From: an uncultured Halioglobus sp.
GTDB lineage: Bacteria > Pseudomonadota > Gammaproteobacteria > Pseudomonadales > Halieaceae
Length of the DNA: 64,000 nt
Assembly (NCBI GenBank): GCA_963976735.1
Contig: CAXBLZ010000005.1
Span: 2,559 to 66,558 of the forward strand
Reading direction: 5' to 3'
The position numbers and the translations under genes are program-made. Numbering within the stretch: the first letter of the stretch is position 1; each line of letters begins with the position of its first letter. Shown one piece after another: positions 8,314 through 64,000 of this stretch. The notes under the pieces are model-generated. The model was given only the letters and a program-made list of their open reading frames with translations. It ran no database searches and was not told the DNA's origin.

Positions 8314-8326
8314 GCGCTCCCTCCAC

Positions 8327-8403
<77 letters not shown>

Positions 8404-8474
8404 AATTCGTCCGGTCTGTACCGCAGACAAGGTTTACATCACCGGTAAAAAGGATCAGTGCCAGCTTCTAACTT

Positions 8475-9868: not shown

Positions 9869-10106
9869 ATTTCCCCACTTACCTGCACAATAGATGATGA
9901 GTCCGGGCGAGAATATCGCTCGGATGTTCCCGGAATATGGAACTGAAGGTGCTAAAAAAACGCTATGAGGTAGTAGACAATCTTAACCAAGACATTGTCA
10001 AGGCGGATTATTTCGCTGCATGCGGGTCAAGGGTGCTGGTGGTTGAATTACGCGGTCAGTTTCCCGTTCCAGCAACCCTGCAGCAGCTTGGCAGCAATTG
10101 ACTTTG

Positions 10107-10132
10107 GCACTCACTATCCAGATAGTGGGTGC
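10107..10132. promoter_or_regulatory. 12-bp-arm palindrome, candidate operator in a divergent promoter region
   Basis: GCACTCACTATC-CA-GATAGTGGGTGC: 11 of 12 arm positions are complementary. Confidence 0.45.
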
Positions 10133-10198
10133 ATGGCTTGAAAGGCACGACTTCGTTCCAAACGGGCCGATATATTGGGACACTATTGGACAATTTGT

Positions 10199-10918: not shown

Positions 10919-10989
10919 AGCTGGCTGCCACTGCATCGGAGCCTGATTTTTGGGACAGGCGATCGAGACGAACACCAGGTTGCTATCGC

Positions 10990-13194: not shown

Positions 13195-13454
13195 CTTCCC
13201 TCCGTGTCTTGTGTGTAGCGAACAGCCAGTGTCCAGTGTAAGCCAGCACATTACCAGTTCCCGATACTATTTGAGCGGAACTACCGGGAAGAAACGAGTT
13301 GCACCGCGGTCGCTTGTTGGGGTCGACAAGCACAGCTCGTTTATATTTGTAGCGGGGGTGTCTGTTTTTTTTCGATAAACGGCTTCATGGCCTTGATCAA
13401 CACATAGATCTGATATTACATTGAAGCCATAATATGCCCTACAACCAATAAGAA

Positions 13455-14702
13455 GTGATCATCATGAAAAATCCCACCATGCGGCAGAGCAAAACCATCA
13501 TTACCCCGGAATTTATTGTCAGCCGCCGTCAGGCGCTGCGTTATAGTCTTGCTACGCTGGGCTTGGCGGTCGGTTCACCGCTGTTGAGTGGCTGCAGTGA
13601 TTCCAATAACAATTCCAATGACACACTCTCCGATGACATGCGCTCTTTTGAGCTTCAGGCGCCTGATGAAAATGGCGTCGCTCTGCCTGTGGGCTATACA
13701 TCCCGTATTGTCGCTCGCTCCACCGAGTTGGTAGAAGGGACCTCGTATGCCTGGCACAACGCGCCCGATGGCGGCGCCTGCTTTGACGCCGGCGACGGAG
13801 GCTGGATTTACGTTTCCAACAGTGAACAGTTCGTCGAGGCCGCTGGCGGGGTCAGCGCTATCCGCTTCGATGCCAATGGCACTATTGTCGACGCCTACAA
13901 TATTTGCACGGGTACTACCGCTAATTGCGCCGGTGGTAAAACACCGTGGAACACCTGGTTGACGTGCGAGGAAAAGTTTATCGGTGACGGTCTGGGCCTG
14001 GTTTACGAGTGTGACCCCTGGGGCGTGAATGCCGCGATTGCCCGGCCTGCCATGGGGGCGTTCGCCCACGAAGCCGTCGCTGTTGATGATGTTATGCAAG
14101 TCCTCTACCTGACAGAAGACAGGCCAGACGGAAAGCTCTATCGCTTCACCCCGGACAATTATCCAGATTTAAGCAGCGGCTTGTTGGAATCTGCAGAAGT
14201 TGTGGGCGACCCGGGCACTGGTGCTTCGCTGGTCTGGCATGTCATTCCTGACCCATCCGGTGTAACCGGCGACACGCGTTACCAGGTACCCGCCAGTAGC
14301 GATTTTAACGGTGGCGAAGGCATAGCGTTCGCCGACGGACTCATATTCTTCGCGACCAAAGGCGATAACCGCATTTGGCGGTATGACACCATCGGCAATT
14401 CCCTCGATATCCTCTACGATGATGACAATTTTGAAGAACCTTTGCTTACCGGCGTCGACAATATCACCATCGCCCCATCTGGTGAAATTTATGTCGCAGA
14501 AGATGGCGGGGACATGCAGGTGGTTATCCTCACGCAATCCGGTGAAACCTTCCCGATCGCCCAGGTTCCTGGCCAGGAAGGCTCAGAAATCACCGGCCCT
14601 GCCATTTACGGAAACCGCTTGTATTTCAGTTCACAGCGGGGCGTAGGACCTTTTAGTGGTGAAGGCGGTATTACCTATGAGATCACCGGGGATTTCCGCT
14701 AG
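13455..14702 (+). CDS. phoX: PhoX/DUF839-family phosphatase-like Tat lipoprotein (short form)
   Basis: SRRQAL twin-Arg and LSGC lipobox. Motifs NSE, NCAGG, TCEE, HEAVA, TED, GGEG, VDNI, AEDG, SEITG. Exact start uncertain. Confidence 0.85.
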   Translation: MIIMKNPTMRQSKTIITPEFIVSRRQALRYSLATLGLAVGSPLLSGCSDSNNNSNDTLSDDMRSFELQAPDENGVALPVGYTSRIVARSTELVEGTSYAWHNAPDGGACFDAGDGGWIYVSNSEQFVEAAGGVSAIRFDANGTIVDAYNICTGTTANCAGGKTPWNTWLTCEEKFIGDGLGLVYECDPWGVNAAIARPAMGAFAHEAVAVDDVMQVLYLTEDRPDGKLYRFTPDNYPDLSSGLLESAEVVGDPGTGASLVWHVIPDPSGVTGDTRYQVPASSDFNGGEGIAFADGLIFFATKGDNRIWRYDTIGNSLDILYDDDNFEEPLLTGVDNITIAPSGEIYVAEDGGDMQVVILTQSGETFPIAQVPGQEGSEITGPAIYGNRLYFSSQRGVGPFSGEGGITYEITGDFR

Positions 14703-49638: not shown

Positions 49639-50337
49639 TCAGTGAATGGGTGTGCCGAGCTTCTTCGCCACCCAGTACCATACGGCGGCATTGAGGTTCA
49701 GACCGATATGGCTGCCCAGCACTTCTATGTTGTGCACGTGGTGATCATCACCGGGTTGCAGGGAGGTGCGCCAGTTCACGATGCCATCGGCTTTGGTATA
49801 AATCGCGGTGGTCGGCACCGGCGGCGGCAGGCACAGGCTGGCATCCGCGCGCCGGTCATCTGTTTGCGGGTTCAGGCGCTGGTACAGGCGGCTGGCGTGC
49901 GATGCGTGCTGTCGCCCGGCACCGAACGGGCTGCCGAGCGTGATGACCTGCGCAATATGATCCGGGTCGCTGCGCGCAATCTCGCGGGCGTAGATACCAC
50001 CGAGTGAATGGCCGATCAGGGCGACCTTGCCATTGCCAGCCTCTATCAGCGGCTCTAGCGCGGCGCGCAGCGCATCCTCGTTAAAGCTCTGTGTGCCCAG
50101 GTTGCGGCCCTGGCCCCAGCCGGAAGCGGTGTAGCCGAGGTGGCGCAGGAACCGGATCAGCGGTGCATTGCCCCGGTCGTCGCCGAGAAAGCCGGGAATC
50201 ACCATCACGCTCTGTGGGTATTGCGTGGGCTTCAGCCGGCGCAGCAGTGGGGCCGCCATGTTGAGGATGGCTACATCTGCCAGCGCGCGCGGCCCATCGC
50301 TCAGCGCCAGCAACAGATTGGGCGGCCGCATATTCAT
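49639..50337 (-). CDS. Alpha/beta hydrolase (lipase/esterase-like)
   Basis: IPGFLG, GHSLGG nucleophile elbow, DGIV, SHIG. ATGA overlap with the WS/DGAT gene. Confidence 0.9.
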   Translation of the reverse strand: MNMRPPNLLLALSDGPRALADVAILNMAAPLLRRLKPTQYPQSVMVIPGFLGDDRGNAPLIRFLRHLGYTASGWGQGRNLGTQSFNEDALRAALEPLIEAGNGKVALIGHSLGGIYAREIARSDPDHIAQVITLGSPFGAGRQHASHASRLYQRLNPQTDDRRADASLCLPPPVPTTAIYTKADGIVNWRTSLQPGDDHHVHNIEVLGSHIGLNLNAAVWYWVAKKLGTPIH

Positions 50338-51827
50338 GCAGCGCTCCTTGTGTTGCGGGATTTGGCCTTGCGGGCCGGGACGCGCGATTTCCTTTTCGCT
50401 GCCGGCGCCGGCGCGGACGCCGCGTTGGCCGCTGTCAGCAGTTCGTCAAAGCTTGCCTGCAGGCATTCCCGGTAGAACGCCGGGTCCGGCATCATCACCC
50501 GGCAACTGGTCGCACTGATGACGAATTGGCCACAGTAACTGCTGATCACGTGGAACAGGCCGAGCCCATCCTGTACCGGCCCGGTGCCGTAGTTGGCGAC
50601 CATTTTTGCGCCGGTGTTGTACAGCGGGATTGGGGGGCCGGGAACGTTGGTGATCACACAGTTGAACTGCGGGCTGATACGGTTCATCAGTCCCCAGCGG
50701 CTGGCCAGTCGCGCCGCCTGTGCGGTCAGTGTAGCGGGTATGAACTGCGAGTAGTCCGTCATGGTCTTGGCACCGATCGCGTTGGTCAGCTCCTTCGCCC
50801 TGCTGCTGCTTTCGTGTACTGCCTGCAGGCGCTGCAGCGGGTCTGCGACGTCGCTGCGCACCTGCACCGTCATGCTGGCGACGATATTGCCGCCGGTTTT
50901 GTCCTTGTCCGAGCGCACGTTGACAGGCGCCATCGCGGCCAGCGACTGTTCGGGGAGCTCATCGTGCGCTTGCAGGTATTTACGCAGGGCGCCGCCGACG
51001 ATGGTAATCGCCGCATCGTTGACGGTAGCGCCGGGCACTGCGTTCTTGATTTTCTTCACATCGTCCAGTGGTACGTTAATAGCATCAAACACCCGGTGTG
51101 GTGAGACGCTGTCGTTAAACCGGGTGCGCGGGATGTCCGTAACCCTGCTCAACTTTCCCCTGGACAGGCCGGCCACGACCCTGGCCAGGCCCGGCACCGT
51201 GTTTCTGGCCACGCTCAGCAGGTGAAAGGGCTTGCGAATACTGTTGTACTGCGAACGGATGACCATCTCCAGCGCTGAGGGCTGACTATCGACACTGATG
51301 GTGGCGGCGGTGTGCGTGCGTTTGTAATCCGCCGACAGATCATGCATCGCCGCCGTCAACTCCATCCCCGAGGTGCCGTCGATGGCCGCGTGGTGTGTCT
51401 TGGAGAACATCGCAAAGCTGCCTTTGGGCACGCCCTCAACGTTGTCCAGGCCTTCAATGATGTACAGCTCCCACAATGGGTGGGCGCGGTCCAGCGGGCG
51501 CGCGTGCAAGCGGGAGATGACGATGCACAACTGCCGCCAGTCGCCCGGTTTGGGCAGCGCAATGTGGCGGATATGAAACTCGGGGTCGAAAGCGCCGTCG
51601 GTCACCCAGTAAGGGTGATCCAGGTTCATGGGCACGGTAACGAGTTTTTGCGTCATCACAGGCATGGCCATCAGGCGGTTGTGGGTGTTTGCGATAATAT
51701 CCTTGAACCGCACTTTGCCGCCGGGCGCGGTGGACTGGTCGTAAATGGACAGGCCCGAGATATGCATCGGGGCGTTGGGGGTTTCCAGATACAGGAAGGA
51801 GGCGTCGAGCCCGGTAAGTTGTTTCAT
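50334..51827 (-). CDS. Wax ester synthase/diacylglycerol acyltransferase (WS/DGAT)
   Basis: LDASFLYLETP, PLWELYII, HHAAIDG catalytic motif, TVND, ITNVPGP. Confidence 0.96.
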   Translation of the reverse strand: MKQLTGLDASFLYLETPNAPMHISGLSIYDQSTAPGGKVRFKDIIANTHNRLMAMPVMTQKLVTVPMNLDHPYWVTDGAFDPEFHIRHIALPKPGDWRQLCIVISRLHARPLDRAHPLWELYIIEGLDNVEGVPKGSFAMFSKTHHAAIDGTSGMELTAAMHDLSADYKRTHTAATISVDSQPSALEMVIRSQYNSIRKPFHLLSVARNTVPGLARVVAGLSRGKLSRVTDIPRTRFNDSVSPHRVFDAINVPLDDVKKIKNAVPGATVNDAAITIVGGALRKYLQAHDELPEQSLAAMAPVNVRSDKDKTGGNIVASMTVQVRSDVADPLQRLQAVHESSSRAKELTNAIGAKTMTDYSQFIPATLTAQAARLASRWGLMNRISPQFNCVITNVPGPPIPLYNTGAKMVANYGTGPVQDGLGLFHVISSYCGQFVISATSCRVMMPDPAFYRECLQASFDELLTAANAASAPAPAAKRKSRVPARKAKSRNTRSAA

Positions 51828-52437: not shown

Positions 52438-52567
52438 TACTCTCTGGTTGTGATCTGGAAGGCGCCAGATAGCCCTGTTTTCATCAGGGCTGCTAACTGT
52501 GTTATGTTTTGGCCGGGACAATGCCAATTGTCCACCCCAAGATACTAATAACCAGTTGGAGCCCGCC

Positions 52568-53848
52568 ATGGCGATACACTGTTTCCGTTCCACCAGAACG
52601 CATCTCGACGGTCGAATTCACCCGGATTTTGCGCCTGTGGAGGCCACCCTGCGCGATATGTTGCGCAATTATCGCGGCGGCGCTGCGGTCTGCGTCTACC
52701 ACCGCGGCGAGTGCGTGGTGGATCTGTGGGGAGGGTACAAGGACGACCAGGGGGGCCTCTGGAGCCGCGACACGATGGCGCCGAGCTTCTCCACCACCAA
52801 GGGTGTGGCGGCGACCCTGCTGCATATCTATGCCGATCGTGGGCTTATCGATTACGACGCCCGGGTGTCGCAGTACTGGCCGGAGTTCGGGCAGGCGGGA
52901 AAGGAAGACATCACGGTGCGGCAGGTGCTGGCGCATCAATCCGGCCTCTACCATATCCGCCAGATGATCGATCACGTGGATCGCATGCTGGACTGGAAGT
53001 ATATGATCCGCGTGATCGAGCAGGCCGAGCCGGCGCATGTTCCCGGCACCCGCACCGGTTATCACGGCCTGACCTTTGGTTTTCTGGTGGGGGAGATTAT
53101 TCAGCGTGTCACCGGCAAGAAGTTTTCCGATCTGGTGCAGAAAGAAATCGCCCGACCGTTAAAACTGGATGGTTTATACATCGGCACCCCGGCGCGGGAG
53201 ATACCGCGTGCGGCACAGTTGATCTTCCCCGATTCCACCAGGCGGCTGGCGCAGACCTCGCTGGGCAGCAAGATCGAGATCAATGCCAGTCGCGTCAGCT
53301 CGCTGTTGCGACGGGTCGGCATCGACTCCGACCTGTCCAGTATTTTCGATGCGCTTGCGCCGCGCGGGGTGAGTGACTTTGATTTCGGGTCGCCGGAGTC
53401 GCTGCGGGTTGCGATTCCGGCGGCGAACGGCTTGTTTACCGCGCGTTCGCTGGCCAGACTCTACGCCCTGCTCGGCAACGGTGGCGAAATGGACGGGGTG
53501 CGCCTGTTGTCGCAGCAGACACTGAAACGCGCTACCACGCTGCAAAAACCCACTGGCAAGCTTTCAGTCATTCCCTTCGATATGCGCTGGCGGCTGGGCT
53601 ACCACGGCGTCGCGACCACCAAAGGCTTCCCGCGCGAGGCGTTTGGGCACTTCGGTTTCGGCGGCTCGGGTGCGTGGGCCGACCCGAAAAGTAGCCTCTC
53701 AGTGGCGCTGATTGTCAACAGTGGCCTGGGCACGCCCTTTGGCGACCTGCGTACGGCGCGCATCGGCGGCGCGGCATTGAGCTGCGCCAATGCGCGGTCC
53801 AGGCCGGCAGGGCTGTTGAAAGAGCCAGTCGCCATCAAGGTTGCCTGA
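52568..53848 (+). CDS. Serine hydrolase (class C beta-lactamase-like esterase)
   Basis: FSTTK (SxxK), LAHQSGL, GYHGLTFG, PAANG, FGHFGFGGS. Confidence 0.92.
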   Translation: MAIHCFRSTRTHLDGRIHPDFAPVEATLRDMLRNYRGGAAVCVYHRGECVVDLWGGYKDDQGGLWSRDTMAPSFSTTKGVAATLLHIYADRGLIDYDARVSQYWPEFGQAGKEDITVRQVLAHQSGLYHIRQMIDHVDRMLDWKYMIRVIEQAEPAHVPGTRTGYHGLTFGFLVGEIIQRVTGKKFSDLVQKEIARPLKLDGLYIGTPAREIPRAAQLIFPDSTRRLAQTSLGSKIEINASRVSSLLRRVGIDSDLSSIFDALAPRGVSDFDFGSPESLRVAIPAANGLFTARSLARLYALLGNGGEMDGVRLLSQQTLKRATTLQKPTGKLSVIPFDMRWRLGYHGVATTKGFPREAFGHFGFGGSGAWADPKSSLSVALIVNSGLGTPFGDLRTARIGGAALSCANARSRPAGLLKEPVAIKVA

Positions 53849-53961: not shown

Positions 53962-54717
53962 ATGGCCACTAGACCCTATCTCAATTCCGCTGTTCTGGAT
54001 GCCATTGATCCCGCCCAATTCCAGGCTAGATCGCCGTTCCCCTGGGTGAACCCGCAGAATTTCATCGATCCCGAGCACTACGAAGAACTGTTGCAAAGCC
54101 TGCCGGAACTGGGGCGTTTCAATGCGTTTTTCGGCAAACAGCGCAAGCATGGGCAGGCCAGCCACGATCGCTACATACTGGATTACGAGCGGGGCATGGA
54201 ACTGGCGCCTGCATGGACTGATTTCATCGAGGAGTTGTGCAGCGACAACTATCGCAAGTTTGTCTGTCGGCTGCTGGATGTGTCCAGCGTGCGGTTTCGC
54301 TTCCACTGGCATTTCACGCCGAACGGCGGTGAGGTTTCGCCGCACTGCGATTCAAAGGGAAAAATCGGCTCGCAGATTTTTTACCTGAACACGGAGAACG
54401 ACTGGGACTGGAGCTGGGGCGGAGAGACGGTCATTCTCGACGACAAGGGCCGCTTTTCGTCCGACACCGCACCGTCATTTGATGATTTCGACGCGGCCTA
54501 CCCGGCCGAGACCAGGGATAACCGCAGTATCCTGTTCGGTCGCCGCGGCAATTCCTGGCACGGGGTGCGACGCATCAATTGTCCGGATAACTACTTCCGC
54601 AAGGTGTTTATCGTGGTTTTTGAGGAACACCGGCCGCTGCGGATGGTGGTCAAGAAGACGCGACGCCTGTTCACCGGTGCACCGTTGGTGACAGAAAAAG
54701 AGCGTTTGATGTACTGA
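53962..54717 (+). CDS. 2OG-Fe(II) oxygenase
   Basis: PHCD (HxD), WGGET, SWHGV and a distal R. Confidence 0.85.
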   Translation: MATRPYLNSAVLDAIDPAQFQARSPFPWVNPQNFIDPEHYEELLQSLPELGRFNAFFGKQRKHGQASHDRYILDYERGMELAPAWTDFIEELCSDNYRKFVCRLLDVSSVRFRFHWHFTPNGGEVSPHCDSKGKIGSQIFYLNTENDWDWSWGGETVILDDKGRFSSDTAPSFDDFDAAYPAETRDNRSILFGRRGNSWHGVRRINCPDNYFRKVFIVVFEEHRPLRMVVKKTRRLFTGAPLVTEKERLMY

Positions 54718-54743
54718 GTGGTATCGCGCTCGATTGTCCCGCG

Positions 54744-56021
54744 CTAGCGCCGCCGCGCGGCTAGTTCGCCGAGTTCCTGATAGAGCGCCGTGTAGTGATC
54801 AAGGCTGTGCTGCTGGTCGACATTCTCCACCACGTAGCGTTGTCCCCGCTGGCCAAACGCTTGTCCCAGCGCCTCGTCCCGTAACAGGCCCTTGAGCGCC
54901 GCTGCGATAGCGCCGGGCTCCCGCGCCACCAGTTGATAGTGTTCATCGGCGGTACCGATGCCGGCGGAGATGCCGAGAAACGGCGTGACCAGACACGGCA
55001 GCCCGGTGGCCATGGCTTCCAGCACCGAGTTAGGGGTGCCCTCGCGACTCGAGGCGAGCACGAACAGGTCGGCGGCGCGCAGGTAGTTGTCCACATCGTC
55101 CACAATGCCGGCGAAATGCACCTGCTCCGGGGCCGCTGAGCTCGCCACCAGCGCCTCGACGTCGGCGCCGAATTTTTGCAGCTTCGGGTCGTGGGTATCG
55201 GCGCGCGGCCCGACAAACATCACGTGGGTATCGGGCCAGTCCTGCAGTACCTGGCGCCAGGCCTGTAAAAGTATATCGGGCCCCTTGCGTGGCATGATGG
55301 CCCCTACCGACACGATGACCTTGTGCCCCTCGGGAATGCCAAAACGGGCCCGCAGCGAGGCCCTGGCCTGCTGGTCTTCGGCCGATCGCGGCGGGTGGAA
55401 ACGCTGCAGATTCACGCCATTGGGGATGTACTCAATGCGTGTGGTAACGCCGATCTCACGCAGGAATACCTCTATCGCCTGGCTGTTGGTGACCAGGGCA
55501 TCGAAGCTGTTGTATACGCGCTGGTAACCGCGTTTGCGAAAGATGCGTTTCAGCGGCTTCTGCTGCCAGGTGGGGAATTGCGACACGGAGTAGACGGTGG
55601 CGACGCCGCTGGCCTTCAGGCGGCGCAGCCAGGGCAGGGCCTGCGGGCGCATATTGGTCAGAAGCTGTGCCACCGTCGGCCCCTCGGTGGGCTGTTGGCA
55701 CACCTCCAGCAGGGCATCGTAGTAGATCTGCGTGCGTGAGCGGCTCTTGCTGTCGGGCAGGCGGATGCGCTCGAGCGGGGCCCCGTCCAGGGTGATAGGC
55801 GACAGCCAGGTGCCCGGCGCTGCCTGGTACCAGCTTTTGTCCGTGTCAGCCTCGCTGCGCTCCTGAATCTGCGGCGTCCCCGTCATCACACGTACATCCA
55901 GCCCGCGATCCAGCAAGCCCGGGATATAGCTGCGATAGCGGTTCTGGGCGCCGCCGTAGGTGGGATAAAAATGGGGGGACGTCAGCCACAGTCTCGTGCG
56001 CTTGTATTGGATTGACGAGAT
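54744..56021 (-). CDS. Glycosyltransferase family 4 (start codon non-canonical, probably ATC)
   Basis: GT-B motifs IPNGV, VGAIMPRKG, REGTPNSVLEAMATG. The frame stays open upstream of the TTG at 55916 through RLWLTSPHFYPTYGGAQ, with only ATC/CTG candidates. Confidence 0.88.
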   Translation of the reverse strand: MSSIQYKRTRLWLTSPHFYPTYGGAQNRYRSYIPGLLDRGLDVRVMTGTPQIQERSEADTDKSWYQAAPGTWLSPITLDGAPLERIRLPDSKSRSRTQIYYDALLEVCQQPTEGPTVAQLLTNMRPQALPWLRRLKASGVATVYSVSQFPTWQQKPLKRIFRKRGYQRVYNSFDALVTNSQAIEVFLREIGVTTRIEYIPNGVNLQRFHPPRSAEDQQARASLRARFGIPEGHKVIVSVGAIMPRKGPDILLQAWRQVLQDWPDTHVMFVGPRADTHDPKLQKFGADVEALVASSAAPEQVHFAGIVDDVDNYLRAADLFVLASSREGTPNSVLEAMATGLPCLVTPFLGISAGIGTADEHYQLVAREPGAIAAALKGLLRDEALGQAFGQRGQRYVVENVDQQHSLDHYTALYQELGELAARRR

Positions 56022-56248
56022 AGGACGTTCCCCCTGCTGTGTAGGACGGGTTGAGTGCGAAGTTCGCGCATTCTATCTGAATGCGGGAGCCCGGAAAACT
56101 GTATCGGTGCGCAGACAGGCAGGCAAAATCTACCTGGCGATGGCCAAACTGGACAGGCGATTCAGCTGACATATAATGGCTTGCACTCACCAGTGCGTAT
56201 TAGAGCGATTGCCCCATCCGCAGTGGATCATAATACGGGATTCATCTG

Positions 56249-57637
56249 ATGTCGCTTCAGGCAAAACAGGTTGGGCCGCAGCAGGCCAGTCCGCAACGGG
56301 TTGCATTCTTGCTGGATAACCTCAATGGCGGTGGTGCCGAACGGGTTGTTTTGTCCATGGCCTCGGGGTTTGCATCGCTTGGATATGAGGTTGATCTGCT
56401 GGTGTGCGAACTGCAGGGTGAGCTGTGCGGTAGCGTGCCGCCCGGCGTCAATCTGGTGGTATTGCAACCCGTGGGCAAATTGGCCGGCCTGGGCGCCGCT
56501 ATCCGGCGAGCTGGCTGGCGTGGCCTGCGCGGAATTCTGTTCTGGCTGGCATCGGCCCGGAAAATCCCACGCAGTTTCCGCTACATTCGCGATATCAGTG
56601 ATTACCTCGAAACCACTCGCCCCGCGGTGATTTCCTCTGCGCTGGGCAAATCGAGTATCAGTGCTATTTTGGCGGCATCCGGCCTGGATGTGCCGACCCG
56701 CGTATTTGTGGGCGTCCATATCGCGCTGTCTATTCGCAGCGAGCAGAGCCGAAAAAGCGGCAAGGGACAGGCGTACAGCATGGTGCCGATGTTCCGCTAC
56801 AGTTTCGCCAGGGCCGACGGTGTTATCGCCGCTTCTCGCGGTGTGGCTGAGGATGCAATCAGTCTCTTGGGCCTGGATCCGGATCGCGTGCATGTGGTCT
56901 ACAACCCTGTCGCCGAGGCCGAACTGGCCGGTGAGCCCAGCGGCGTTTTCACTCACCCATGGTTTCGGCCTGGTTCTCCACCGGTCGTCCTCGGTATGGG
57001 GCGCCTGGTCGAGCAAAAAAACTTTCCCCTGCTGATACGAGCGTTTGCCGCCGTGCGCCGGCGCGTCGATGCGCGGCTGGTTATTCTCGGGGGCGACAAG
57101 TCCTCCGCTGAACAGATGGCCCATCGTCAGGAATTGCAGAACCTGGCCACAGAACTGGGCGTTGGAGAGGATATCGCCCTGCCCGGTTATCAGCGCGATC
57201 CCCATACCTTCCTGCGGGCGGCGCGGGTATTTGTGCTGTCGTCCAACTTTGAGGGGTTTGGCAATGTGCTGGTGGAAGCGCTGTTGGAAGGGTGTCCGGT
57301 GGTGAGTACCGACTGCCCCAGCGGACCTTCCGAGATTCTGGAAAACGGGCGGTATGGCAAATTGGTGCCGGTCAATGATGTGGCGCGGTTGTCGGAGGCA
57401 ATTCTGGATAGCCTGGCGTCTGAACCGGATTCAGACATGCTGCGCCAGCGTGGACGAGAATTCTCACTGGAGCGTGCGGTGGAGGGATATCACCGGATAT
57501 TTTTTGGCGAGAGCCCCGCCTGCCTGCCCGGCGAGCCGGACCTGTCATCGTCGGTCAAGTCCAGCTCGTACGCCACCAGGCAGGCCAATGGTAGCCACAG
57601 AATGATCCACAGTTCCCTGGGCCGGGTGATCATCTGA
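56249..57637 (+). CDS. Glycosyltransferase family 4
   Basis: GGGAERV, VVYNPV, GRLVEQKNF, EGFGNVLVEALLEGCPVVSTDCPSGPSEIL. The C-terminal tail overlaps the convergent gene. Confidence 0.93.
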   Translation: MSLQAKQVGPQQASPQRVAFLLDNLNGGGAERVVLSMASGFASLGYEVDLLVCELQGELCGSVPPGVNLVVLQPVGKLAGLGAAIRRAGWRGLRGILFWLASARKIPRSFRYIRDISDYLETTRPAVISSALGKSSISAILAASGLDVPTRVFVGVHIALSIRSEQSRKSGKGQAYSMVPMFRYSFARADGVIAASRGVAEDAISLLGLDPDRVHVVYNPVAEAELAGEPSGVFTHPWFRPGSPPVVLGMGRLVEQKNFPLLIRAFAAVRRRVDARLVILGGDKSSAEQMAHRQELQNLATELGVGEDIALPGYQRDPHTFLRAARVFVLSSNFEGFGNVLVEALLEGCPVVSTDCPSGPSEILENGRYGKLVPVNDVARLSEAILDSLASEPDSDMLRQRGREFSLERAVEGYHRIFFGESPACLPGEPDLSSSVKSSSYATRQANGSHRMIHSSLGRVII

Positions 57638-58737
57638 TCGGTGTCGACGAGCACGCAGATCACGCCAAGCGCGAACAGGCACAGATAGCGCGCGCGACGC
57701 ACGGTGAATACCATTTTGAAAGCGGTTTGCAGCGCCAGCCCGTAGACCGCGAGTAACAGCAGCAGTCCAACCATGCCGCCGTCGCGCAGGGTTGCGAGAA
57801 AACTGCTGTGGGCGTAGTTCAGGATGCTCGGCTTGCCGTCTGGCAGTAAAACAATCTCTGGTTGGAAGCCATACCCAAAAATAGGAGCGGCTTGCCACTG
57901 CTCCAGTATGCGCTCCCAGATCGGAAACCTTGCTACAAAACCGAGATCGGTCGCCGCGTTCAACAAACCCAGAGACCAGACCAGGTAGAGACTGGCAGCC
58001 ACACCAATGGCAAGCCCGATAACCAGTGCCGGTGGCGCCCGGCGACGGTCGAGAAGAAACAGCAGTGCGCAGGCCGAGGCCATCGCCAGCAGGCCGGTAT
58101 TGCTCTGGGTCAGGATCACAAAAAACACGATTATCATCAGTCCCGCAGCGTGGACATAAGCCAGCTTTTCACCCCAGTGCCGTCGCGCGTAATCCAGTGC
58201 GATAACGCCAAAAAAACCGTAAATGAAAGCGCTCGGGTTCGGGTTGTCGGTAATGCCCAGGCCAATCAGGCGATTGTCCGTCAACGCCGGCAGCAGCATC
58301 AGATCCTCAAAGGTGACGATGGAAACGGCCGCGGCGAGGATAGCCACCAGGGTGACCGCCTCCATGATCGCATCCGGCAATTGTCGATTGCGTTCAAACC
58401 AGTACACCGTCAGCAGAATAAAAACGAGTATATACGCAGTGTACCGGGCATCGCGCCACAGCGTAGCGACGGAAAAGTCAGTGCTCCACAGCGAGCTCGA
58501 CAACATGTAGGCCAGATAGGCCAGCAGGCTCAGCCAGATGCGGCTTCTCATGCACAGTTTTAATGTTTGCGGCAGCAGGAACAGACCGGGCAGGAATACG
58601 GCGGCAATATAAAACTTGTAGTTGTCCACAGCGTTAGGGACGAAGTAAAAACCCGCGAGGAACAGCGTATAGGTTGCGAAAACGACATTCGCCAGACTCC
58701 AGCGACGATCGCGATCCGGAAAAGACAGGTTCAGCAC
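57490..58737 (-). CDS. O-antigen ligase/polymerase (WaaL/Wzy_C)-like membrane protein
   Basis: About 12 TM helices, TQSNTG, periplasmic RFPIW..P.FGYGF, HSSFL..L.DGGMVG. GTG 58737 overlaps the GT2 stop. Confidence 0.82.
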   Translation of the reverse strand: MLNLSFPDRDRRWSLANVVFATYTLFLAGFYFVPNAVDNYKFYIAAVFLPGLFLLPQTLKLCMRSRIWLSLLAYLAYMLSSSLWSTDFSVATLWRDARYTAYILVFILLTVYWFERNRQLPDAIMEAVTLVAILAAAVSIVTFEDLMLLPALTDNRLIGLGITDNPNPSAFIYGFFGVIALDYARRHWGEKLAYVHAAGLMIIVFFVILTQSNTGLLAMASACALLFLLDRRRAPPALVIGLAIGVAASLYLVWSLGLLNAATDLGFVARFPIWERILEQWQAAPIFGYGFQPEIVLLPDGKPSILNYAHSSFLATLRDGGMVGLLLLLAVYGLALQTAFKMVFTVRRARYLCLFALGVICVLVDTDQMITRPRELWIILWLPLACLVAYELDLTDDDRSGSPGRQAGLSPKNIR

Positions 58738-59717
58738 GCAGCATCCTTGTGGCGATAGTGTCGGTTGGGTATCTGTAGCACGCCCGCAATGGTGCCCAGG
58801 TTGTCCGCAATACGCAGTGCGTGAGGTACCCAAGCGCTGCTTTTGCGGCCGGCGCTGGCGAGCATACGCAGCAGGTACCAGGCGATACGCCCTGCGGATT
58901 TCAGCGTCAGGCGCAGGGCGATACGCAGCGCGTCGAGGTTGGAGCGGGATTTCAGGCGCCGTTTCACAAAGTACTTCACGCAGCCTCGGCGATAGGACTC
59001 TCGCCACATATAGGACAAGTTGGCGCGTTCGGCCGGAATCCACTCGCTGACCTGTGCCGCATTGGCCCAGGCGAACCGATAGCCGCACTGTTTCAGCGAC
59101 TGAAACAGCAGTTTGTCCTCGCCGCCACTGAGCGCCAGGGCCGGCTCAAATGACAGGCCTGATGGGCCGAGCAAATCGGCTCGCACCAGCACATTGCAGG
59201 TCGCAGCCGGAGGGTCCGGGTCCAGGTCGCACAGGCTCGCCCCGTTTTCAGGTTTTATGAAAAAGCCACTGGCTTTTATCCAGTCCGGTGTCTGGGGCGG
59301 AAAGACGGGCGTGGTGGGCCCGACGATGATGTCAGCGCCGCTGCGGGTCTGGGCATCCAGTAACTGGTCCAGCCAATCGGGTGCCGGCACCTCGTCGTCA
59401 TCGATCATGGCGATAAAATCTGTGTCCGGTGCCACAGCGGCCAGCGCCGTGTTGCGGGCGTAGGATATGCCGGGCCGCGGTTCGTGCAGGTATTGCAGGG
59501 GCCAGCGCGTTGTCTGCGCTGCACAGGTTGCAGCGGCCGAGCCGGTGGGCGAATTGTCGACCACAATGAGTTGCACGCGGGGCTGTGGTGTGACGGTAAA
59601 GGTCTGGCCGTCGAGCCCTGCCAGCAGGCGTTGCAAGCCGTCGGGACGCATAAACGTGCAGATACAGATGGCTAGTGAGCTGTGTGTAGGCTCAGGAATA
59701 GGTTGCTCCGTTTGCAT
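58731..59717 (-). CDS. Glycosyltransferase family 2 (ExoM-like)
   Basis: CICTFMRP, VVDN, GISYARN, MIDDDE (DxD), GGED. ATG 59717. Confidence 0.92.
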   Translation of the reverse strand: MQTEQPIPEPTHSSLAICICTFMRPDGLQRLLAGLDGQTFTVTPQPRVQLIVVDNSPTGSAAATCAAQTTRWPLQYLHEPRPGISYARNTALAAVAPDTDFIAMIDDDEVPAPDWLDQLLDAQTRSGADIIVGPTTPVFPPQTPDWIKASGFFIKPENGASLCDLDPDPPAATCNVLVRADLLGPSGLSFEPALALSGGEDKLLFQSLKQCGYRFAWANAAQVSEWIPAERANLSYMWRESYRRGCVKYFVKRRLKSRSNLDALRIALRLTLKSAGRIAWYLLRMLASAGRKSSAWVPHALRIADNLGTIAGVLQIPNRHYRHKDAAC

Positions 59718-59722
59718 AGAGG

Positions 59723-60655
59723 CTAGAGTTTGTGCGCCTTCGGCCAGCGCCGTTTCAGGCAGACCCACTGCTCGGGGTACTCCCTGATCCACGCTTCGAA
59801 GTGGTGGTGCACCATTTCCGTGATCGCCACAGCCTGTTCCTTGATCGGTGCATCTGGAATCGGGCTGACCAGTGGGTCGTAAACGGTTATCCGGTAACGC
59901 CCCCCCGGGAGGCGCTCGGCGCGCGACACGACGATTGCGGCCCCGGTGCGCAGCGCCAGCCCTACCGCGCTGGTATTGGTCAGCGCATCCACGCCAAAAA
60001 AGGGAATCAGTTTGCCGGTATCGGGCCGCGTATCGATCGCCATGATGATACTTTCGCCTGCGTTCAGCGCCTTGATCAGCGGCCGGGGCCCGGCGTCGGC
60101 GGCAATCAGCTTTTCTCCAAACGACTGGCGCAACTCCAGCATCAGTTCCTGCATGACCGGATTGGACTCCGGTGCGTAGATGGTGTTTATGTCGAAACCG
60201 AACTGCCGTGTCACCAGTGCCGCGACTTGCCAGGCGCCCACGTGGGCCGTCATGAACACGGTAGCGCGCTTGCTCTGCATATGTTTGAGGGCCTCGGGCT
60301 CGAGCACGAATTCGATGCGCTGGTCTCGCTCTTCCCAGATCTGCTGCAATTTCAGCAACTCGGCGGCGGAGTACCCGAGGTGGCGAAAAATCTCCCGGGT
60401 TGTCTGGTCTCGCCACTGCGGGGATTCGTCGGGAAACGCGATTGCCAGGTTGTCCCGGGCCTTTGCCGCTTTATCTGACACCGAGCCGACAAGCCCAAAA
60501 GCCGTCGCTGACAACCGCATGGCGTGGTCGATACTCAGCTTGCGCATCAGCCAGAAAACAAAACGGAACAGAGCCGCTTCTGCCCGCTGTGTGATAGTGA
60601 CCAGTATCGGCGCCTTGCGAGCCAGGCGCTTGGGAATCAGGTAAAACTCGGGCAC
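59723..60655 (-). CDS. LpxL/HtrB-family acyltransferase with HxxxxQ instead of HxxxxE
   Basis: NLAIAFP, TAHVGAWQ, IDTRPD..IPFFG, PEQWVCLKRRW. GTG 60655 gives an N-terminus (MPEF) parallel to its paralog (MAEF). Confidence 0.88.
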   Translation of the reverse strand: MPEFYLIPKRLARKAPILVTITQRAEAALFRFVFWLMRKLSIDHAMRLSATAFGLVGSVSDKAAKARDNLAIAFPDESPQWRDQTTREIFRHLGYSAAELLKLQQIWEERDQRIEFVLEPEALKHMQSKRATVFMTAHVGAWQVAALVTRQFGFDINTIYAPESNPVMQELMLELRQSFGEKLIAADAGPRPLIKALNAGESIIMAIDTRPDTGKLIPFFGVDALTNTSAVGLALRTGAAIVVSRAERLPGGRYRITVYDPLVSPIPDAPIKEQAVAITEMVHHHFEAWIREYPEQWVCLKRRWPKAHKL

Positions 60656-60665
60656 TCTGGTCGAC

Positions 60666-61277
60666 TCAACCCTGGCCCGGGTCGGAGCCGAATATACGGT
60701 CCCAGAGCGGGGAGCTGACTCCGTAGCGGCCACCCTCTTTAGCGTAGTGGTGCTTCAGGTGATAGTGCTTGAGAAATTTTGCCACCGGGTTGCGCATCGG
60801 GAAGTGATGGGTCGAGTAATGGATGTAGTCGTAGATCAGGTAGCCGATGATAAAAAACGCGCAAAACGGCTGAATCCACGGCTGCGGGATAAACAGGCCG
60901 AACAGCAGGTACAGCACCAGCATAATGGGAATCGCGCCAGCGGGGGGCATCACCAGGCGGGTCTTGTCCTTCGGATCATCGTGATGGTTGCCGTGGAACA
61001 GGAACACCAGCCACTTGCCCACTTTGCTGGTGGCGGGAAAGTGGAACAGATAGCGGTGCAGGCAGTACTCGGTGAGAGTCCAGGTGATAATGCCGGCGAC
61101 ACCGATCGCCAGCACCGGTAGCAGCGCCAGGTTGTACACGGCGAAGCTGCGCCAGATCAACCAGGCCGCAATGGGCCCCCACATCAGCAGTGGCGTGATG
61201 GGGTGAACATGGGACAGGCGTTCGAGAAAGTCGTTCTCGAACAGGCGTATGGATTGATGTTGTTCTTCAGGCTGCAT
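60666..61277 (-). CDS. Fatty acid hydroxylase superfamily di-iron enzyme, Scs7/FA2H-like
   Basis: EYCLHRYLFH, HGNHH..PKDKTRLVMPP, YDYIHYSTHH, LKHYHLKHHY, GVSSPLWDRIFG. Confidence 0.9.
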   Translation of the reverse strand: MQPEEQHQSIRLFENDFLERLSHVHPITPLLMWGPIAAWLIWRSFAVYNLALLPVLAIGVAGIITWTLTEYCLHRYLFHFPATSKVGKWLVFLFHGNHHDDPKDKTRLVMPPAGAIPIMLVLYLLFGLFIPQPWIQPFCAFFIIGYLIYDYIHYSTHHFPMRNPVAKFLKHYHLKHHYAKEGGRYGVSSPLWDRIFGSDPGQG

Positions 61278-62253
61278 AGGAATCCGTGTCGGCATCTGGG
61301 CCGCGCTCCTCCGTCTTGGGTAGTTTACGTTTTGGCCATATGCGTTTCGAGCAGAACCAGTCTTCCGGTTGCTGGCGTATCCAGTCCTCGAACTGCAGGT
61401 GGACCTGTTGGATCATATCGATGGCTTGGTCAGTCTCATCCGCACTGGTATTGCGGGGGCGGATGGGGGCGTGAAAGGTGACCCGGTAATGGGCATCCTG
61501 CAACCGCTCCACCTGCACGGGGACGAGGTCGCAGTTGAACTTCAGTGCCAGCTTGGCGGGCATGATGGTCGAGGGCTTGTCGAACCCAAAAAACTGCACG
61601 GGCTTGCCTTCATCCACCCGGCGATCCATCACCATGGCGGCAGTTCGCCCCTGTTTGAGTGCGCGCATCAGCAGGCGGGTGCTGTTTTCTGCCGGCAACA
61701 GTTCACAGTTGAGCGCTTCGCGGGACTCCAGCAACATACGGTCCAGTAGCGGATTGGTGGGCGGCGAGTACAGGCTGGCATTGGGAATATTCAATTTCGC
61801 CATCGCCGAGCACACCACTTCCCAGTTGCTCTGGTGGGCGGTCACGATAACGCAAGGCCTGGCAGGATTCCCGTAGGTTTCGATGGATTCGCGAATATCA
61901 ATCTGCAGGCGATCGTCCTCAGAGAGTATCGTGGCCAGGTGCGGGTACTCGGCCATCACACGCCCGGAGCGCCCCCAGGAACGGGTGACCAGGTCATCGA
62001 GTTCCGCCTCACTCAACTCGGGAAACGCGATGGCCAGGTTCGCGCGATAGATCGCTGTTTTCTTCTTCAGCTTTGGCCCTATCCAGCGACCCAGTTTTTC
62101 GCCGAAGCGGGAAGCTGTATCGACCGGCAGCAGTCGCGCCAAGCGGGTAATCGACCACACCAGCACAAAATCCAGCCGCCACAGCGCCTCTCGGAGCAGG
62201 CGATGATCGCGTGCCCATTTGCGCAATGGATTGCCGACAATAAATTCTGCCAC
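61267..62253 (-). CDS. LpxL/HtrB-family acyltransferase
   Basis: NLAIAFP, TAHQSNWE (HxxxxE), MDRRVD..VQFFG, PEDWFCSKRIW. GTG 62253 follows GAGG. Confidence 0.9.
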   Translation of the reverse strand: MAEFIVGNPLRKWARDHRLLREALWRLDFVLVWSITRLARLLPVDTASRFGEKLGRWIGPKLKKKTAIYRANLAIAFPELSEAELDDLVTRSWGRSGRVMAEYPHLATILSEDDRLQIDIRESIETYGNPARPCVIVTAHQSNWEVVCSAMAKLNIPNASLYSPPTNPLLDRMLLESREALNCELLPAENSTRLLMRALKQGRTAAMVMDRRVDEGKPVQFFGFDKPSTIMPAKLALKFNCDLVPVQVERLQDAHYRVTFHAPIRPRNTSADETDQAIDMIQQVHLQFEDWIRQQPEDWFCSKRIWPKRKLPKTEERGPDADTDSYAA

Positions 62254-62328
62254 GGTTAGCCTCACCTGAAATTTAGGATTCAACGAAAAGCAGGGCATTA
62301 TATCGCACTATAGCCGCGAGATTCGCGG

Positions 62329-63267
62329 TCAAAGTGGTGGTAATTTGAGCTGTTCCAGCCCCTCGCGCAAACCGACCACAGGTGTCCATCCGGTAGCGGC
62401 GGTAATTGCGTTGTTGTCTGTAACCCAGTCGCTGTGGCGCAGTTCGCGGACCTTGGGCGGTGTCAGCATGGGCGCATTGCCGGTGATGCCGGCCACCCGG
62501 GTGTTGAGGTTGGCGATGGCGTCGAGCAGCCACGTTGGCACGCGCACGAGGCGCACCCGCCGCGACCAGTGCTGACCGGCGATCTCAGCCATATCGTGCC
62601 AATTGTAGCCGTTGGGCTTGCCGTCGCCCACGCTTAACGGCTGGCGCAGAGCGGCGGGGCACAGCAGGCAGGCGATAATGGCCTCCACCAGATCGGATAC
62701 GTAAATCAGCGAGATACGCACCTCTGGTGAGCCGGGTACGACGGCGATACCGCGCTGCATCAGCCGAAAGATCGGCAGCATCTCCTTGTCGCCGGGACCG
62801 TACACTGCGGGCGGTCGCAGCACGGTGTACTCAATATCAACACAGTGTTCCAGCAACTGCTCGCCCTGCCATTTGCTGTGTGCGTACCAGGAAATGTTCG
62901 GCTCTCGCGCCACGATCGAGGACAGCAATAGCAGCCGCGGCCGGTGTGTCTGTGCCCGGATAGCCCTGATGACAGCGGCCGTGCCATCGACATTGACGCG
63001 ATCGAAGTCGGCCTGGCACCTGCCCCGGACGGCACCTGCGGCGTGTACCACAGCGTCGCTGTCGGCGATGAGTTGTTCGAGCGCGGTGCTGTTGGCGAGG
63101 TCTCCCTCAACAAGGGTTACGCCGGTGGCGGCAAGCTGTGTGGCTGCCGCTGGATTCCTGACCAGTGCCCGAATGCGGTAACCCCGATCCAGCAGGGACT
63201 GGCACAGGGTGGAACCGATAAACCCGGTAGCGCCGGTAACGGCGATGAGGCTGCCTTCGACGATCAG
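62329..63267 (-). CDS. NAD-dependent epimerase/dehydratase (extended SDR), CerR-like; probable CTG start
   Basis: TGATGFIG Rossmann motif lies upstream of the ORF-track start. Also VHAAG, SSIVAREP, YAHSK (YxxxK), RPPAVYGPGD. Confidence 0.88.
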   Translation of the reverse strand: MIVEGSLIAVTGATGFIGSTLCQSLLDRGYRIRALVRNPAAATQLAATGVTLVEGDLANSTALEQLIADSDAVVHAAGAVRGRCQADFDRVNVDGTAAVIRAIRAQTHRPRLLLLSSIVAREPNISWYAHSKWQGEQLLEHCVDIEYTVLRPPAVYGPGDKEMLPIFRLMQRGIAVVPGSPEVRISLIYVSDLVEAIIACLLCPAALRQPLSVGDGKPNGYNWHDMAEIAGQHWSRRVRLVRVPTWLLDAIANLNTRVAGITGNAPMLTPPKVRELRHSDWVTDNNAITAATGWTPVVGLREGLEQLKLPPL

Positions 63268-64000
63268 GCTGAAGCCACCCTCAGGCGCACTTCTTCAGCG
63301 GCGGCGTCAAGCATATCGACATCGTTGCTGTTGATGAAGTCGAGCCGTGCCTTGGCGCGGGACAACTTGCCCGATGAAGTGCGCGGCAGCGAGTGAATGG
63401 GAACCAGCTCGACATAGCAGTCCAGGCTCATCTCCATACGCACCAGGGCGGTCAGGCGACGAACCAGGTTATTGCGTTTGATCGGGTCTGTCTCGCGACA
63501 CTGTACCATCAGCACACACAGTTCCTCGCCCTCGCTGTTGGGCGCGGAGAATGCCACCGCATCACCAGCGCGCACCTCGGGCTGCGTTTCTGCCACATGC
63601 TCAAGATCCTGCGGCCAGATGTTGCGACCATGGATGATGATCAGGTCCTTCTTGCGGCCGGTAATGGTCAGTACACCGTCCACCAGGTAGCCGATATCGC
63701 CCGTGTTGAGCCAGCCGTCCTCGCTCAGTGCGTGGCTGGTTTCCTCGGGCAGGTTGAAGTAACCCGACATCACGCTGGGGCCGCGCAGGTAAATTACGCC
63801 ACTCTGCCAGTCGTCCAGTACGCGGTTGTCGTCGCGGACCTCGACTTCAAAATTGGGCATCGGGATGCCGCAGTTGACGAAATGGCGACCTCTGCCCTGG
63901 GTGTCGTCCTCATCCAGCAGCACGGCTTCGTGGTGATCTGACAGGTGATCGCTGTCGATATAGTGTGTCGTGAAGCCGGTGGACAGCGGTGAAAAGCTGA
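63264..64000 (-). CDS. Fatty acyl-AMP ligase / acyl-ACP synthetase, 3' part only (5' end beyond the window)
   Basis: Frame is open to the window edge. FVNCG.PMP, GPSVMSGYF, WLNTGDIGY, GRKKDLII..GRNIWPQDLE, PRTSSGKLSR. Confidence 0.9.
   Translation of the reverse strand, partial: SFSPLSTGFTTHYIDSDHLSDHHEAVLLDEDDTQGRGRHFVNCGIPMPNFEVEVRDDNRVLDDWQSGVIYLRGPSVMSGYFNLPEETSHALSEDGWLNTGDIGYLVDGVLTITGRKKDLIIIHGRNIWPQDLEHVAETQPEVRAGDAVAFSAPNSEGEELCVLMVQCRETDPIKRNNLVRRLTALVRMEMSLDCYVELVPIHSLPRTSSGKLSRAKARLDFINSNDVDMLDAAAEEVRLRVASA

Follow-up and report, generated by a model that had tools for sequence, protein, structure and literature searches.

In this study we describe the genes at one end of a 64,000-nt stretch of DNA from an uncultured Halioglobus sp. 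(the window), in which genes were found by six-frame open reading frame (ORF) analysis combined with Pfam and NCBIfam scans. The gene content of positions 53962-64000 suggests that this region is the tailoring end of a ~30-kb sphingolipid gene cluster in Halieaceae (the OM60/NOR5 clade). It is only recently that the genes of bacterial sphingolipids were defined, in Caulobacter, E. coli B and Bacteroides, and the Rhodobacteria-type ceramide cluster itself is already known; the new part is the run of cerR, an LpxL-like acyltransferase gene, a hydroxylase gene and a second LpxL-like gene. It is very likely that the predicted cluster is a sphingolipid cluster, and we consider it probable that ceramide synthesis is combined in it with tailoring of the sphingolipid by LpxL-like enzymes, a fatty acid hydroxylase (FAH) and glycosyltransferases (GTs). 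That the LpxL-type enzymes themselves act on a sphingolipid, a proposal based on their family and on the conserved operon structure, is somewhat favored over the alternatives weighed below.

Part of the evidence for ceramide synthesis comes from genes that lie past the last base of the window. We extended the window with contigs encoding identical hydroxylase and GNAT proteins, among them L040, which is 99.88% identical to the window over 4834 shared nt and whose coordinates plus 59166 give window-equivalent positions. Past base 64000 the genes follow in the order remainder of a fatty acyl-AMP ligase (FAAL), AsnB-type amidotransferase, GT4 and then a divergent 382-aa GNAT and a MobA-like nucleoside triphosphate (NTP) transferase. 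These are followed on L040 by a PhyH gene, an Acyl_transf_3 gene, a metallophosphoesterase, MurA, a 401-aa alpha-oxoamine synthase (AOS) and an 80-aa carrier protein, and the stretch ends with an Elm1-like (PF06258) protein, an MsbA-like ABC transporter and an LptF/LptG-family permease. The first-pass annotation had named the sequence beyond 64000 as the place to look for spt, an acyl carrier protein (ACP) gene and bCerS, and all three are indeed present on L040, 5-13 kb beyond that base. The Spt protein (L040 16489-17694, ~75655-76860 window-equivalent) scores 595.7 bits on the equivalog model NF047599 (cut-off 500), has bacterial SPTs as its nearest solved relatives (2x8u, E 6e-122) and is 56% identical to E. 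coli B Spt (blastp, E 3e-152). The ACP, an 80-aa PP-binding protein encoded 35 nt upstream of spt, is 37% identical to E. coli AcpR (E 2.5e-13); none was found in the 570-nt gap upstream of FAAL, where we had also looked for it, and no AOS gene was seen in window positions 1-53 kb when the starts of the 55 ORF calls were read by eye. The GNAT is 50% identical to E. coli YghO over 373 aa (blastp, E 2e-143), and a tblastn search of plasmid records with the same protein also returned E. coli yghO at 50% identity. It is moreover 47% identical to a Roseomonas GNAT situated between LptF/G genes and a nucleotidyltransferase, which is the position of cerS in Caulobacter. Against PDB sequences the GNAT gave nothing useful (only a generic GNAT at E 0.003), and its best 120 protein matches are all at least 80% identical, with no distant homologues or useful names among the matches listed. 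The comparison with CerS and CerR was made via E. coli B YghO and its neighbors and not with the Caulobacter sequences. Since Spt passes its equivalog cut-off and a YghO-type GNAT is present, the sphingolipid assignment does not fail for want of spt or bCerS.

The two ceramide genes that reach into the window agree with this assignment. The complete FAAL (592 aa, from L001/L040) reaches 785 bits on NF006624 'fatty acyl-AMP ligase', above its cut-off of 600, and is 47% identical to E. coli B AasR over 552 aa (blastp, E 6e-174). The adjacent short-chain dehydrogenase/reductase (SDR), which had been likened to CerR from a sequence pattern, does resemble it: between this protein and the CerR orthologue of E. 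coli B ('epi') identity is 39% over 298 aa (blastp, E 9e-74), and an alignment of the two shows the common motif SS[IL]xAR.P.[IL]SWYA.SK. The nearest solved relatives of the SDR in the PDB are NDUFA9/NUEM-type complex I subunits, which agrees with the published description of CerR as NDUFA9-like (PMC11087976). Homologues of the SDR occur in genomes of Halioglobus, Haliea and other Halieaceae with a top identity of 86%, the best being in Halioglobus metagenome-assembled genomes; a Halioglobus japonicus record and Ca. Litorirhabdus singularis IMCC14734 are among the genome matches.

In E. coli BL21, ECD_02851 is aasR, 02852 is 'epi' (cerR), 02853 is acpR and 02854 is spt, yghO/ECD_02850 is the orthologue of Caulobacter CC_1154 (cerS), and AasR, AcpR and Spt have been assayed biochemically (PMC9386255). 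We find in non-K-12 E. coli that yghO is divergent from the FAAL, SDR, ACP and AOS genes, which are followed by lptG/lptF paralogues, and that the five Halieaceae core proteins (GNAT, FAAL, SDR, ACP and AOS) are 37-56% identical to their E. coli B counterparts. The pairs aasR-cerR and cerS-(MobA-like NTP transferase, CC_1153) are adjacent in Caulobacter, Hyphomonas and Nitrosomonas, matching the Halieaceae cluster, which also has, like Caulobacter CC_1152-CC_1168 and E. coli B, an LptF/G paralogue, an ABC exporter and a CC_1158-like metallophosphoesterase. Collectively, these sequence identities and the synteny with the E. coli B and Caulobacter-type clusters make the ceramide-synthesis identity well supported.

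Sphingolipid clusters of the Rhodobacteria type are known from three proteobacterial classes (alpha, beta and gamma), with E. coli B, Azotobacter and Pseudomonas luteola among the carriers, and two further loci seen here resemble them. Plasmid pRo-1 of Roseomonas gilardii carries genes for a kinase, a CDP-alcohol transferase, a metallophosphoesterase, a HIT protein and LptF/G proteins, together with a sterol-desaturase-family gene, the 47% identical GNAT homologue and an NTP transferase, in an order that agrees with the Caulobacter gene order (PMC11324152). The distant gammaproteobacterial locus L036 has FAAL, SDR, ACP, a GMC oxidoreductase, Spt and an ABC transporter, as well as a CDP-OH transferase, a metallophosphoesterase, LptF/G, two NTP transferases and a GNAT. 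The Halieaceae cluster differs from the Caulobacter and E. coli B clusters in several respects. Its acpR-spt genes stand apart from aasR-cerR, and genes for a ceramide kinase, a Tam41-like protein or a CDP-alcohol transferase were not seen in the stretch of the cluster that we read. It adds a conserved GT4, a 2-oxoglutarate (2OG) oxygenase and an Elm1-like gene, and it has an inserted glycan cassette that varies between strains. The LpxL1-FAH-LpxL2 genes that follow cerR in Halieaceae are not among the 17 genes of the Caulobacter cluster, nor do they occur in the E. coli cluster region seen.

The genes at the end of the window are as follows, in their order on the minus-strand run and then outward to the cluster edge.
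63264 to beyond 64000, minus strand: FAAL, an AasR-type acyl-ACP synthetase of which the C-terminal 244 codons lie in the window; the gene runs on to ~65042 window-equivalent.
62329-63267, minus strand: CerR-type extended SDR (PF01370, 1.4e-29).
61267-62253, minus strand: LpxL1, an LpxL/PatA-superfamily acyltransferase (PF03279 Lip_A_acyltrans, 3e-46).
60666-61295, minus strand: FAH, an Scs7/FA2H-like hydroxylase (PF04116 FA_hydroxylase, 2e-20).
59723-60655, minus strand: LpxL2, a paralogous LpxL-superfamily acyltransferase (PF03279, 8e-38).
58731-59768, minus strand: GT2 glycosyltransferase, first gene of the accessory glycan cassette (PF00535, 1.7e-16).
57490-58737, minus strand: Wzy_C polytopic membrane protein of the accessory cassette (PF04932, 3.6e-17).
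56249-57637, plus strand: convergent GT4 of the accessory cassette (PF00534, 1e-32).
54744 to ~56021, minus strand: conserved divergent GT4 (PF00534/PF13692, ~6e-26).
53962-54717, plus strand: 2OG-Fe(II) oxygenase at the cluster edge (PF13640 2OG-FeII_Oxy_3, 5.6e-7).

Every gene and domain of the first-pass annotation was recovered at its place by Pfam and ORF analysis. Its description of a coupled minus-strand run also held: from FAAL to Wzy_C the six junctions measure, in order, -4, +75, -29, +10, -46 and -7 nt, and with such spacings the term coupled is fair. At the first of these junctions, neither ATG, GTG nor TTG precedes the GxxGxxG motif of the SDR, and a CTG start overlaps the FAAL stop (CTGA, 63264-63267). 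Because a canonical start codon is missing, gene callers shorten the SDR to 194 aa, by which it loses the Rossmann motif. The CTGA junction is found in most of the Halieaceae loci inspected (L001-L035), L028 and L029 having TAA and then GTG in its place, and it looks like termination-reinitiation coupling. A reading of the SDR as a frameshifted pseudogene was ruled out by the open frame and by the recurrence of the CTGA junction in most related loci. At the second junction, one Halioglobus genome (L018, 10949-12389) carries a TetR-like regulator and a GST-like gene, both assigned by eye, between cerR and LpxL1, so the 75-nt gap evidently tolerates insertion.

To establish which of these genes belong together, genes were mapped by tblastn across 36 genome loci and 80 metagenome loci. 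FAAL-SDR-LpxL1-FAH-LpxL2 and the divergent GNAT-NTP transferase pair are present in all Halieaceae genome loci, and the same FAAL-to-LpxL2 run is present in every metagenome locus of at least 4.5 kb with at least 50% LpxL1 identity. In loci that show the flank, the genes upstream are those of ABC, Elm1, ACP, Spt, MurA and the metallophosphoesterase. At the other end, in many genomes, either the 2OG oxygenase gene comes immediately after LpxL2 or the conserved GT4 stands between the two. On the basis of presence and position in this mapping, the end of the window divides into three parts: the core at 59723-64000 and the outer pair at 53962-56021 are both conserved, and the glycan cassette that separates them (56249-59768) is accessory. 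The proposal of a sphingolipid locus in the first-pass annotation thus stands as far as the ceramide cluster is concerned, and is to be corrected for GT2, Wzy_C and the convergent GT4, which form a variable cassette outside the conserved core.

A search of 1.84 billion representative proteins with LpxL1 gave 396 clusters at E <1e-30, and we read the genomic contexts of representatives at 38-43% identity. Locus L044 has Elm1, a sulfotransferase, 2OG, an NTP transferase and a GNAT (57%) divergent from LpxL, FAH (60%), LpxL and Elm1; L046 has an SDR (48%), LpxL and FAH; L043 has LpxL and FAH; and L045, L047 and L048 have LpxL with sulfotransferases, Elm1 and 2OG. The gene contents of L044 and L046 indicate that the link of the LpxL1-FAH-LpxL2 triad to bCerS-like and CerR-like genes persists at LpxL1 identities as low as 39-41%.

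The two acyltransferases share the Pfam domain of LpxL/LpxM and PatA, and presumably they likewise esterify a hydroxyl of a membrane lipid from an acyl-ACP (or acyl-CoA) donor. Unlike LpxL and LpxM, they are encoded in a ceramide operon and not with lpx or waa genes. LpxL1 falls below the cut-off of all 16 NCBIfam models that it matched, and LpxL2 likewise falls under the cut-off of every model matched. The best match for both is NF005120, with 170.5 bits for LpxL1 and 144.9 for LpxL2 (cut-off 273), followed by ~82 bits on TIGR02207 (cut-off 297.8), 66 and 57 bits for LpxL1 and LpxL2 on TIGR02208 (cut-off 336), and 47-63 bits on the Pseudomonas-type PRK05646 (cut-off 491). The score on the phosphatidylinositol mannoside (PIM) acyltransferase model about equals that on the LpxL model (80.6 and 82 bits for LpxL1). 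Among solved proteins LpxL1 is a distant relative of A. baumannii LpxM (E 1e-9) and PatA (E 5e-4), with weak matches to both, and among plasmid records it finds only alphaproteobacterial acyltransferases at 23-32% identity. Its start lies 15 codons downstream of the start of the 343-aa ORF, and in alignments it retains the HX4E catalytic motif as HQSNWE. LpxL2, ~30% identical to LpxL1, has HX4Q (HVGAWQ) in place of HX4D/E, and the Q is kept in 9 of 9 orthologues aligned; a different acid might serve in LpxL2, as in PatA, or its role might be altered or non-catalytic.

The hydroxylase, whose gene overlaps LpxL1 by 29 nt, had been compared with Scs7/FA2H from its motifs, and this likeness is confirmed by a match to yeast Scs7 (4ZR1; phmmer, E 1e-24 over residues 23-205, 183 residues) in which all four His clusters align (LHRYLFH, HGNHH, IHYSTHH and YHLKHHY). 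The 209-aa FAH thus shares the di-iron His clusters of the ceramide acyl 2-hydroxylases, HX4H and HX2HH among them; in contrast to Scs7/FA2H it has no fused cytochrome b5, PF04116 being its sole Pfam match and the alignment beginning at residue 189 of full-length Scs7. In Caulobacter, hydroxylation of the sphingolipid acyl chain is attributed to the DesA-family protein CC_0202 and not to an Scs7-like enzyme. The nearest plasmid-borne relatives of FAH (34-38%) are mostly from Novosphingobium, and one lies in an Acidisoma locus beside an SDR, an aminotransferase class I/II enzyme and GT genes.

Of the outer pair, the conserved GT4 extends ~35 codons upstream of its first canonical start, and the motif SPHFYPTYGG is located in this extension. 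The N-terminus concerned (KRTRLWLTSPHFYPTYGG...) is encoded at 55917-56021, in frame upstream of the first ATG/GTG/TTG, and an ATC located 7-8 nt past a GGGGGA could serve as start codon; at this place L014 has ATG, which L007, L009 and L035 lack. The GT4 found in distant modules composed of LpxL, Elm1 and GT4 shares 43% identity with the protein over 412 aa (E 1.5e-122), and the conserved GT4 is a member of an older module with LpxL-like and Elm1-like genes. In most related loci a 2OG oxygenase orthologue of 68-88% identity comes after LpxL2 or after the conserved GT4 (48% in L034), and PF13640 genes are also present in the distant LpxL modules.

Based on these assignments, we propose the following pathway. 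An AasR-type ligase would load a fatty acid onto the dedicated carrier AcpR, Spt would condense the acyl chain with serine to give 3-ketosphinganine, the YghO/bCerS-type GNAT would N-acylate the product of Spt, and the CerR-type SDR would reduce the 3-keto group. These predicted roles are given by orthology, AasR, AcpR and Spt having been assayed in E. coli B and the reductase and N-acyltransferase being known from Caulobacter genetics. The later steps are suggested by protein family and operon structure: the Scs7-like FAH would 2-hydroxylate the amide-linked acyl chain, and LpxL1 and LpxL2 would attach ester-linked acyl chains from acyl-ACP. The acceptor of these chains could be the 2-hydroxyl, giving a lipid-A-like acyloxyacyl unit, a hydroxyl of the long-chain base, or a sugar, as for PatA on PIMs. 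The conserved GT4 and the Elm1-like putative GT-B enzyme encoded outside the window would supply a sugar head group, the 2OG oxygenase would perform a further oxidation, and the accessory cassette would extend the glycan. Export might proceed via the MsbA-like ABC protein and the LptF/G paralogue of the cluster, as proposed for Caulobacter.

Together with AsnB and a further GT4 beyond the window, the cassette at 56249-59768 probably extends the glycan. The GT2 gene shares 46 nt with LpxL2 and 7 nt with Wzy_C, all three on one strand, and because of these overlaps GT2 and Wzy_C are probably on the transcript of the core operon. A set of GT2, Wzy_C and the convergent GT4 is restricted to the lineage of the window and a few others, in which the three travel together, and it is placed elsewhere in the cluster in L017 and L091. 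GT2 is missing from many related loci, in which LpxL2 directly precedes the 2OG gene. In other strains the interval from GNAT to the upstream GT4 holds a Wzy_C of its own, 25-30% identical, and further strains have SGNH-like or sulfotransferase-like genes (by eye) in the cassette's stead, or nothing; AsnB and the upstream GT4 are also missing from more distant Halieaceae. The Wzy_C protein has ~9 hydrophobic segments and scores 63 bits on PF04932, with no match to an NCBIfam model and none to a PDB chain below E 0.3, solved WaaL included. Its earlier description as WaaL-like came from the Pfam Wzy_C domain and finds no support in a sequence match to any solved WaaL. The protein shares the Wzy_C domain and polytopic form of the WaaL/Wzy superfamily, within which ligase and polymerase are indistinguishable by sequence here, and in comparison with the WaaL O-antigen ligase its gene is accessory and not conserved. 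The Wzy_C and convergent GT4 ORFs overlap by 148 nt at their 3' ends (57490-57637), with the same calls in related contigs, and a promoter-like site with 11 of 12 positions matching lies before the convergent GT4, at 56150-56177.

This variability also fits a reading that we hold to be less likely than not, in which the cassette together with AsnB and the outer GT4 is an unrelated exopolysaccharide (EPS) or O-antigen island in a permissive spot and leaves the sphingolipid unmodified; this would be compatible with sphingolipid tailoring by the conserved genes. Its absence from many relatives, its other position in two loci and its replacement by other Wzy_C/GT sets, SGNH-like genes or sulfotransferases all point in that direction, and among protein families AsnB comes nearest to the EPS amidotransferases of XrtA/PEP-CTERM type (578 bits against a cut-off of 817). 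However, the overlaps place GT2 and Wzy_C on what is probably the core transcript, different glycan cassettes recur inside one and the same cluster, as expected for a variable glycan on a conserved lipid anchor, and the stretch around the cluster that was annotated with Pfam showed neither a Wzx flippase nor an initiating phosphoglycosyltransferase.

Several observations weigh against the proposed sphingolipid pathway and its tailoring steps. The first is that the cassette is not conserved and for that reason may be an unrelated insertion. The deepest LpxL1 relatives (~40%), in loci L119, L121, L123 and L127 of other gammaproteobacteria, have no FAAL, SDR, spt or FAH within 10 kb, so the acyltransferase module can exist apart from ceramide genes. 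In these loci (~7.8-15 kb in L119, L121 and L123) a module of sulfotransferase, a 300-aa protein without a Pfam match, LpxL, Elm1, 2OG and GT4 stands beside the nuo operon, with GT4, LpxL and Elm1 being 43%, 44% and 35% identical to the Halieaceae genes. LpxL2 lacks the acidic residue of its HX4D/E motif, membership in the LpxL family alone points to lipid A, and the chemotaxonomy of the clade reports only unidentified phospholipids and aminophospholipids. Moreover, if Halieaceae have no other lpxL or lpxM, LpxL1 and LpxL2 may simply be their lipid A late acyltransferases.

This last point leads to an alternative that we consider unlikely, namely that LpxL1, FAH and LpxL2 (and perhaps the GTs and Wzy_C) are ordinary enzymes of lipid A and the lipopolysaccharide (LPS) core, with FAH replacing LpxO, and are neighbors of the ceramide genes because outer-membrane lipid genes cluster. 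In its favor are the PF03279 domain of both acyltransferases, their best NCBIfam matches, which are named lipid A lauroyl acyltransferase, and their nearest annotated cultured relatives, alphaproteobacterial genes at 27-32% identity that carry the annotation 'lipid A biosynthesis lauroyl acyltransferase'. Pseudohaliea rubra, a member of the clade, contains 12:0 2-OH together with 3-OH fatty acids, which are typical of Pseudomonas-like lipid A, and the distant LpxL, Elm1 and GT4 modules have no ceramide genes nearby. The Elm1-like family PF06258 also includes proteins annotated as outer-core glycosyltransferases in Acinetobacter. Against this, both acyltransferases score far under every curated LpxL/LpxM/LpxP cut-off, which is unexpected of housekeeping enzymes in a gammaproteobacterium. 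They form one tightly coupled operon with aasR-cerR in all close relatives, bCerS-like or CerR-like neighbors are still present at 40% identity, and the closest solved relative of FAH acts on ceramide. Furthermore, no lpxA/B/C/D/K or waaA was found among the Pfam-annotated or homology-mapped genes of the loci examined.

Less likely still, and in our opinion improbable, is a reading in which the LpxL, Elm1, GT4 and 2OG genes make an acylated glycolipid of their own. Its anchor would be a glycerolipid or some other molecule, in the manner of PimA/PatA, it would carry sulfate in some lineages, and the module would be only co-located and co-regulated with the sphingolipid genes. The conservation of the LpxL, Elm1 and GT4 trio alone beside sulfotransferases in L123-type loci and the nearly equal PIM and LpxL model scores of LpxL1 would fit such a lipid, but no glycerolipid-synthesis gene was identified in any of the loci, and the acyltransferases are transcriptionally fused to cerR in Halieaceae. 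The sulfotransferase and the 300-aa protein encoded in the stand-alone modules also have counterparts in L034 and L044, at 47-63% identity. For the 300-aa family these include two genes of L034 at 56-63%, a locus that carries FAAL-SDR and whose first ORF resembles the C-terminus of AOS/Spt (by eye); L044 carries the bCerS-like GNAT.

Returning to the sphingolipid pathway, a bolder version of it would be a sphingolipid-anchored lipopolysaccharide in Halieaceae and in other marine gammaproteobacteria that have the module. Here a 2-hydroxylated, acyloxyacylated and glycosylated ceramide would stand beside LPS or partly replace it, would often bear a variable O-antigen-like cap attached by a Wzy_C/WaaL-type enzyme, and would be exported by MsbA and LptF/G paralogues dedicated to it. 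We regard this version as rather doubtful and offer it tentatively.

Some further genes in and around the cluster deserve mention. MurA (L040 15239-16489, ~74405-75655) passes its equivalog cut-off and lies between spt and the metallophosphoesterase wherever the Halieaceae flank is visible. In L032 (3574-4830; 17271-19485) the usual ibaG-murA-hisG neighborhood, read by eye from ORF starts, is without murA, and the murA of the cluster may for this reason be the sole housekeeping copy. A role for MurA as a head-group enzyme was set aside in view of the equivalog score and of the ibaG-hisG neighborhood in L032. A PhyH-family dioxygenase and an Acyl_transf_3 membrane acyltransferase (L040 12014-14185, ~71180-73351) lie between the NTP transferase and the metallophosphoesterase in the strain of the window itself; in the close relatives L007, L009, L011, L015 and L035 the latter two are adjacent, with neither gene between them. 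On the other side, a WS/DGAT wax-ester synthase (50334-51827) and a beta-lactamase-family protein (52499-53848) flank the cluster and are syntenic in most Halioglobus/Haliea loci. Elsewhere in the window, positions 8001-14000 have a G+C content of 0.51-0.54, compared with ~0.60 in the remainder, and few, short gene calls, and may be a foreign island; an ORF at 8873-9868 in this part has, by eye, a CxxxCxxC motif as in radical SAM enzymes.

In our literature collection, which is incomplete, we found nothing that links Halieaceae to sphingolipids, Halieaceae lipidomics included, and nothing that links LpxL-family acyltransferases or O-acylated ceramides to bacterial sphingolipid clusters. To our knowledge, the tailoring steps known for bacterial sphingolipids are head-group additions. 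The cluster suggests a multiply acylated sphingolipid that is not described in the literature searched. If this is true, it would represent a new layer of chemistry, in which lipid-A-family acyltransferases and a eukaryote-like ceramide 2-hydroxylase are built into a ceramide operon with a hypervariable glycan cassette on top. The lipid may account for the 'unidentified phospholipid/aminophospholipid' of the clade's chemotaxonomy. Halieaceae (OM60/NOR5) are one of the abundant groups of coastal bacterioplankton and the cluster is found throughout the family, so such a lipid could matter for marine biomarkers, for recognition by phages and grazers, and for outer-membrane physiology.

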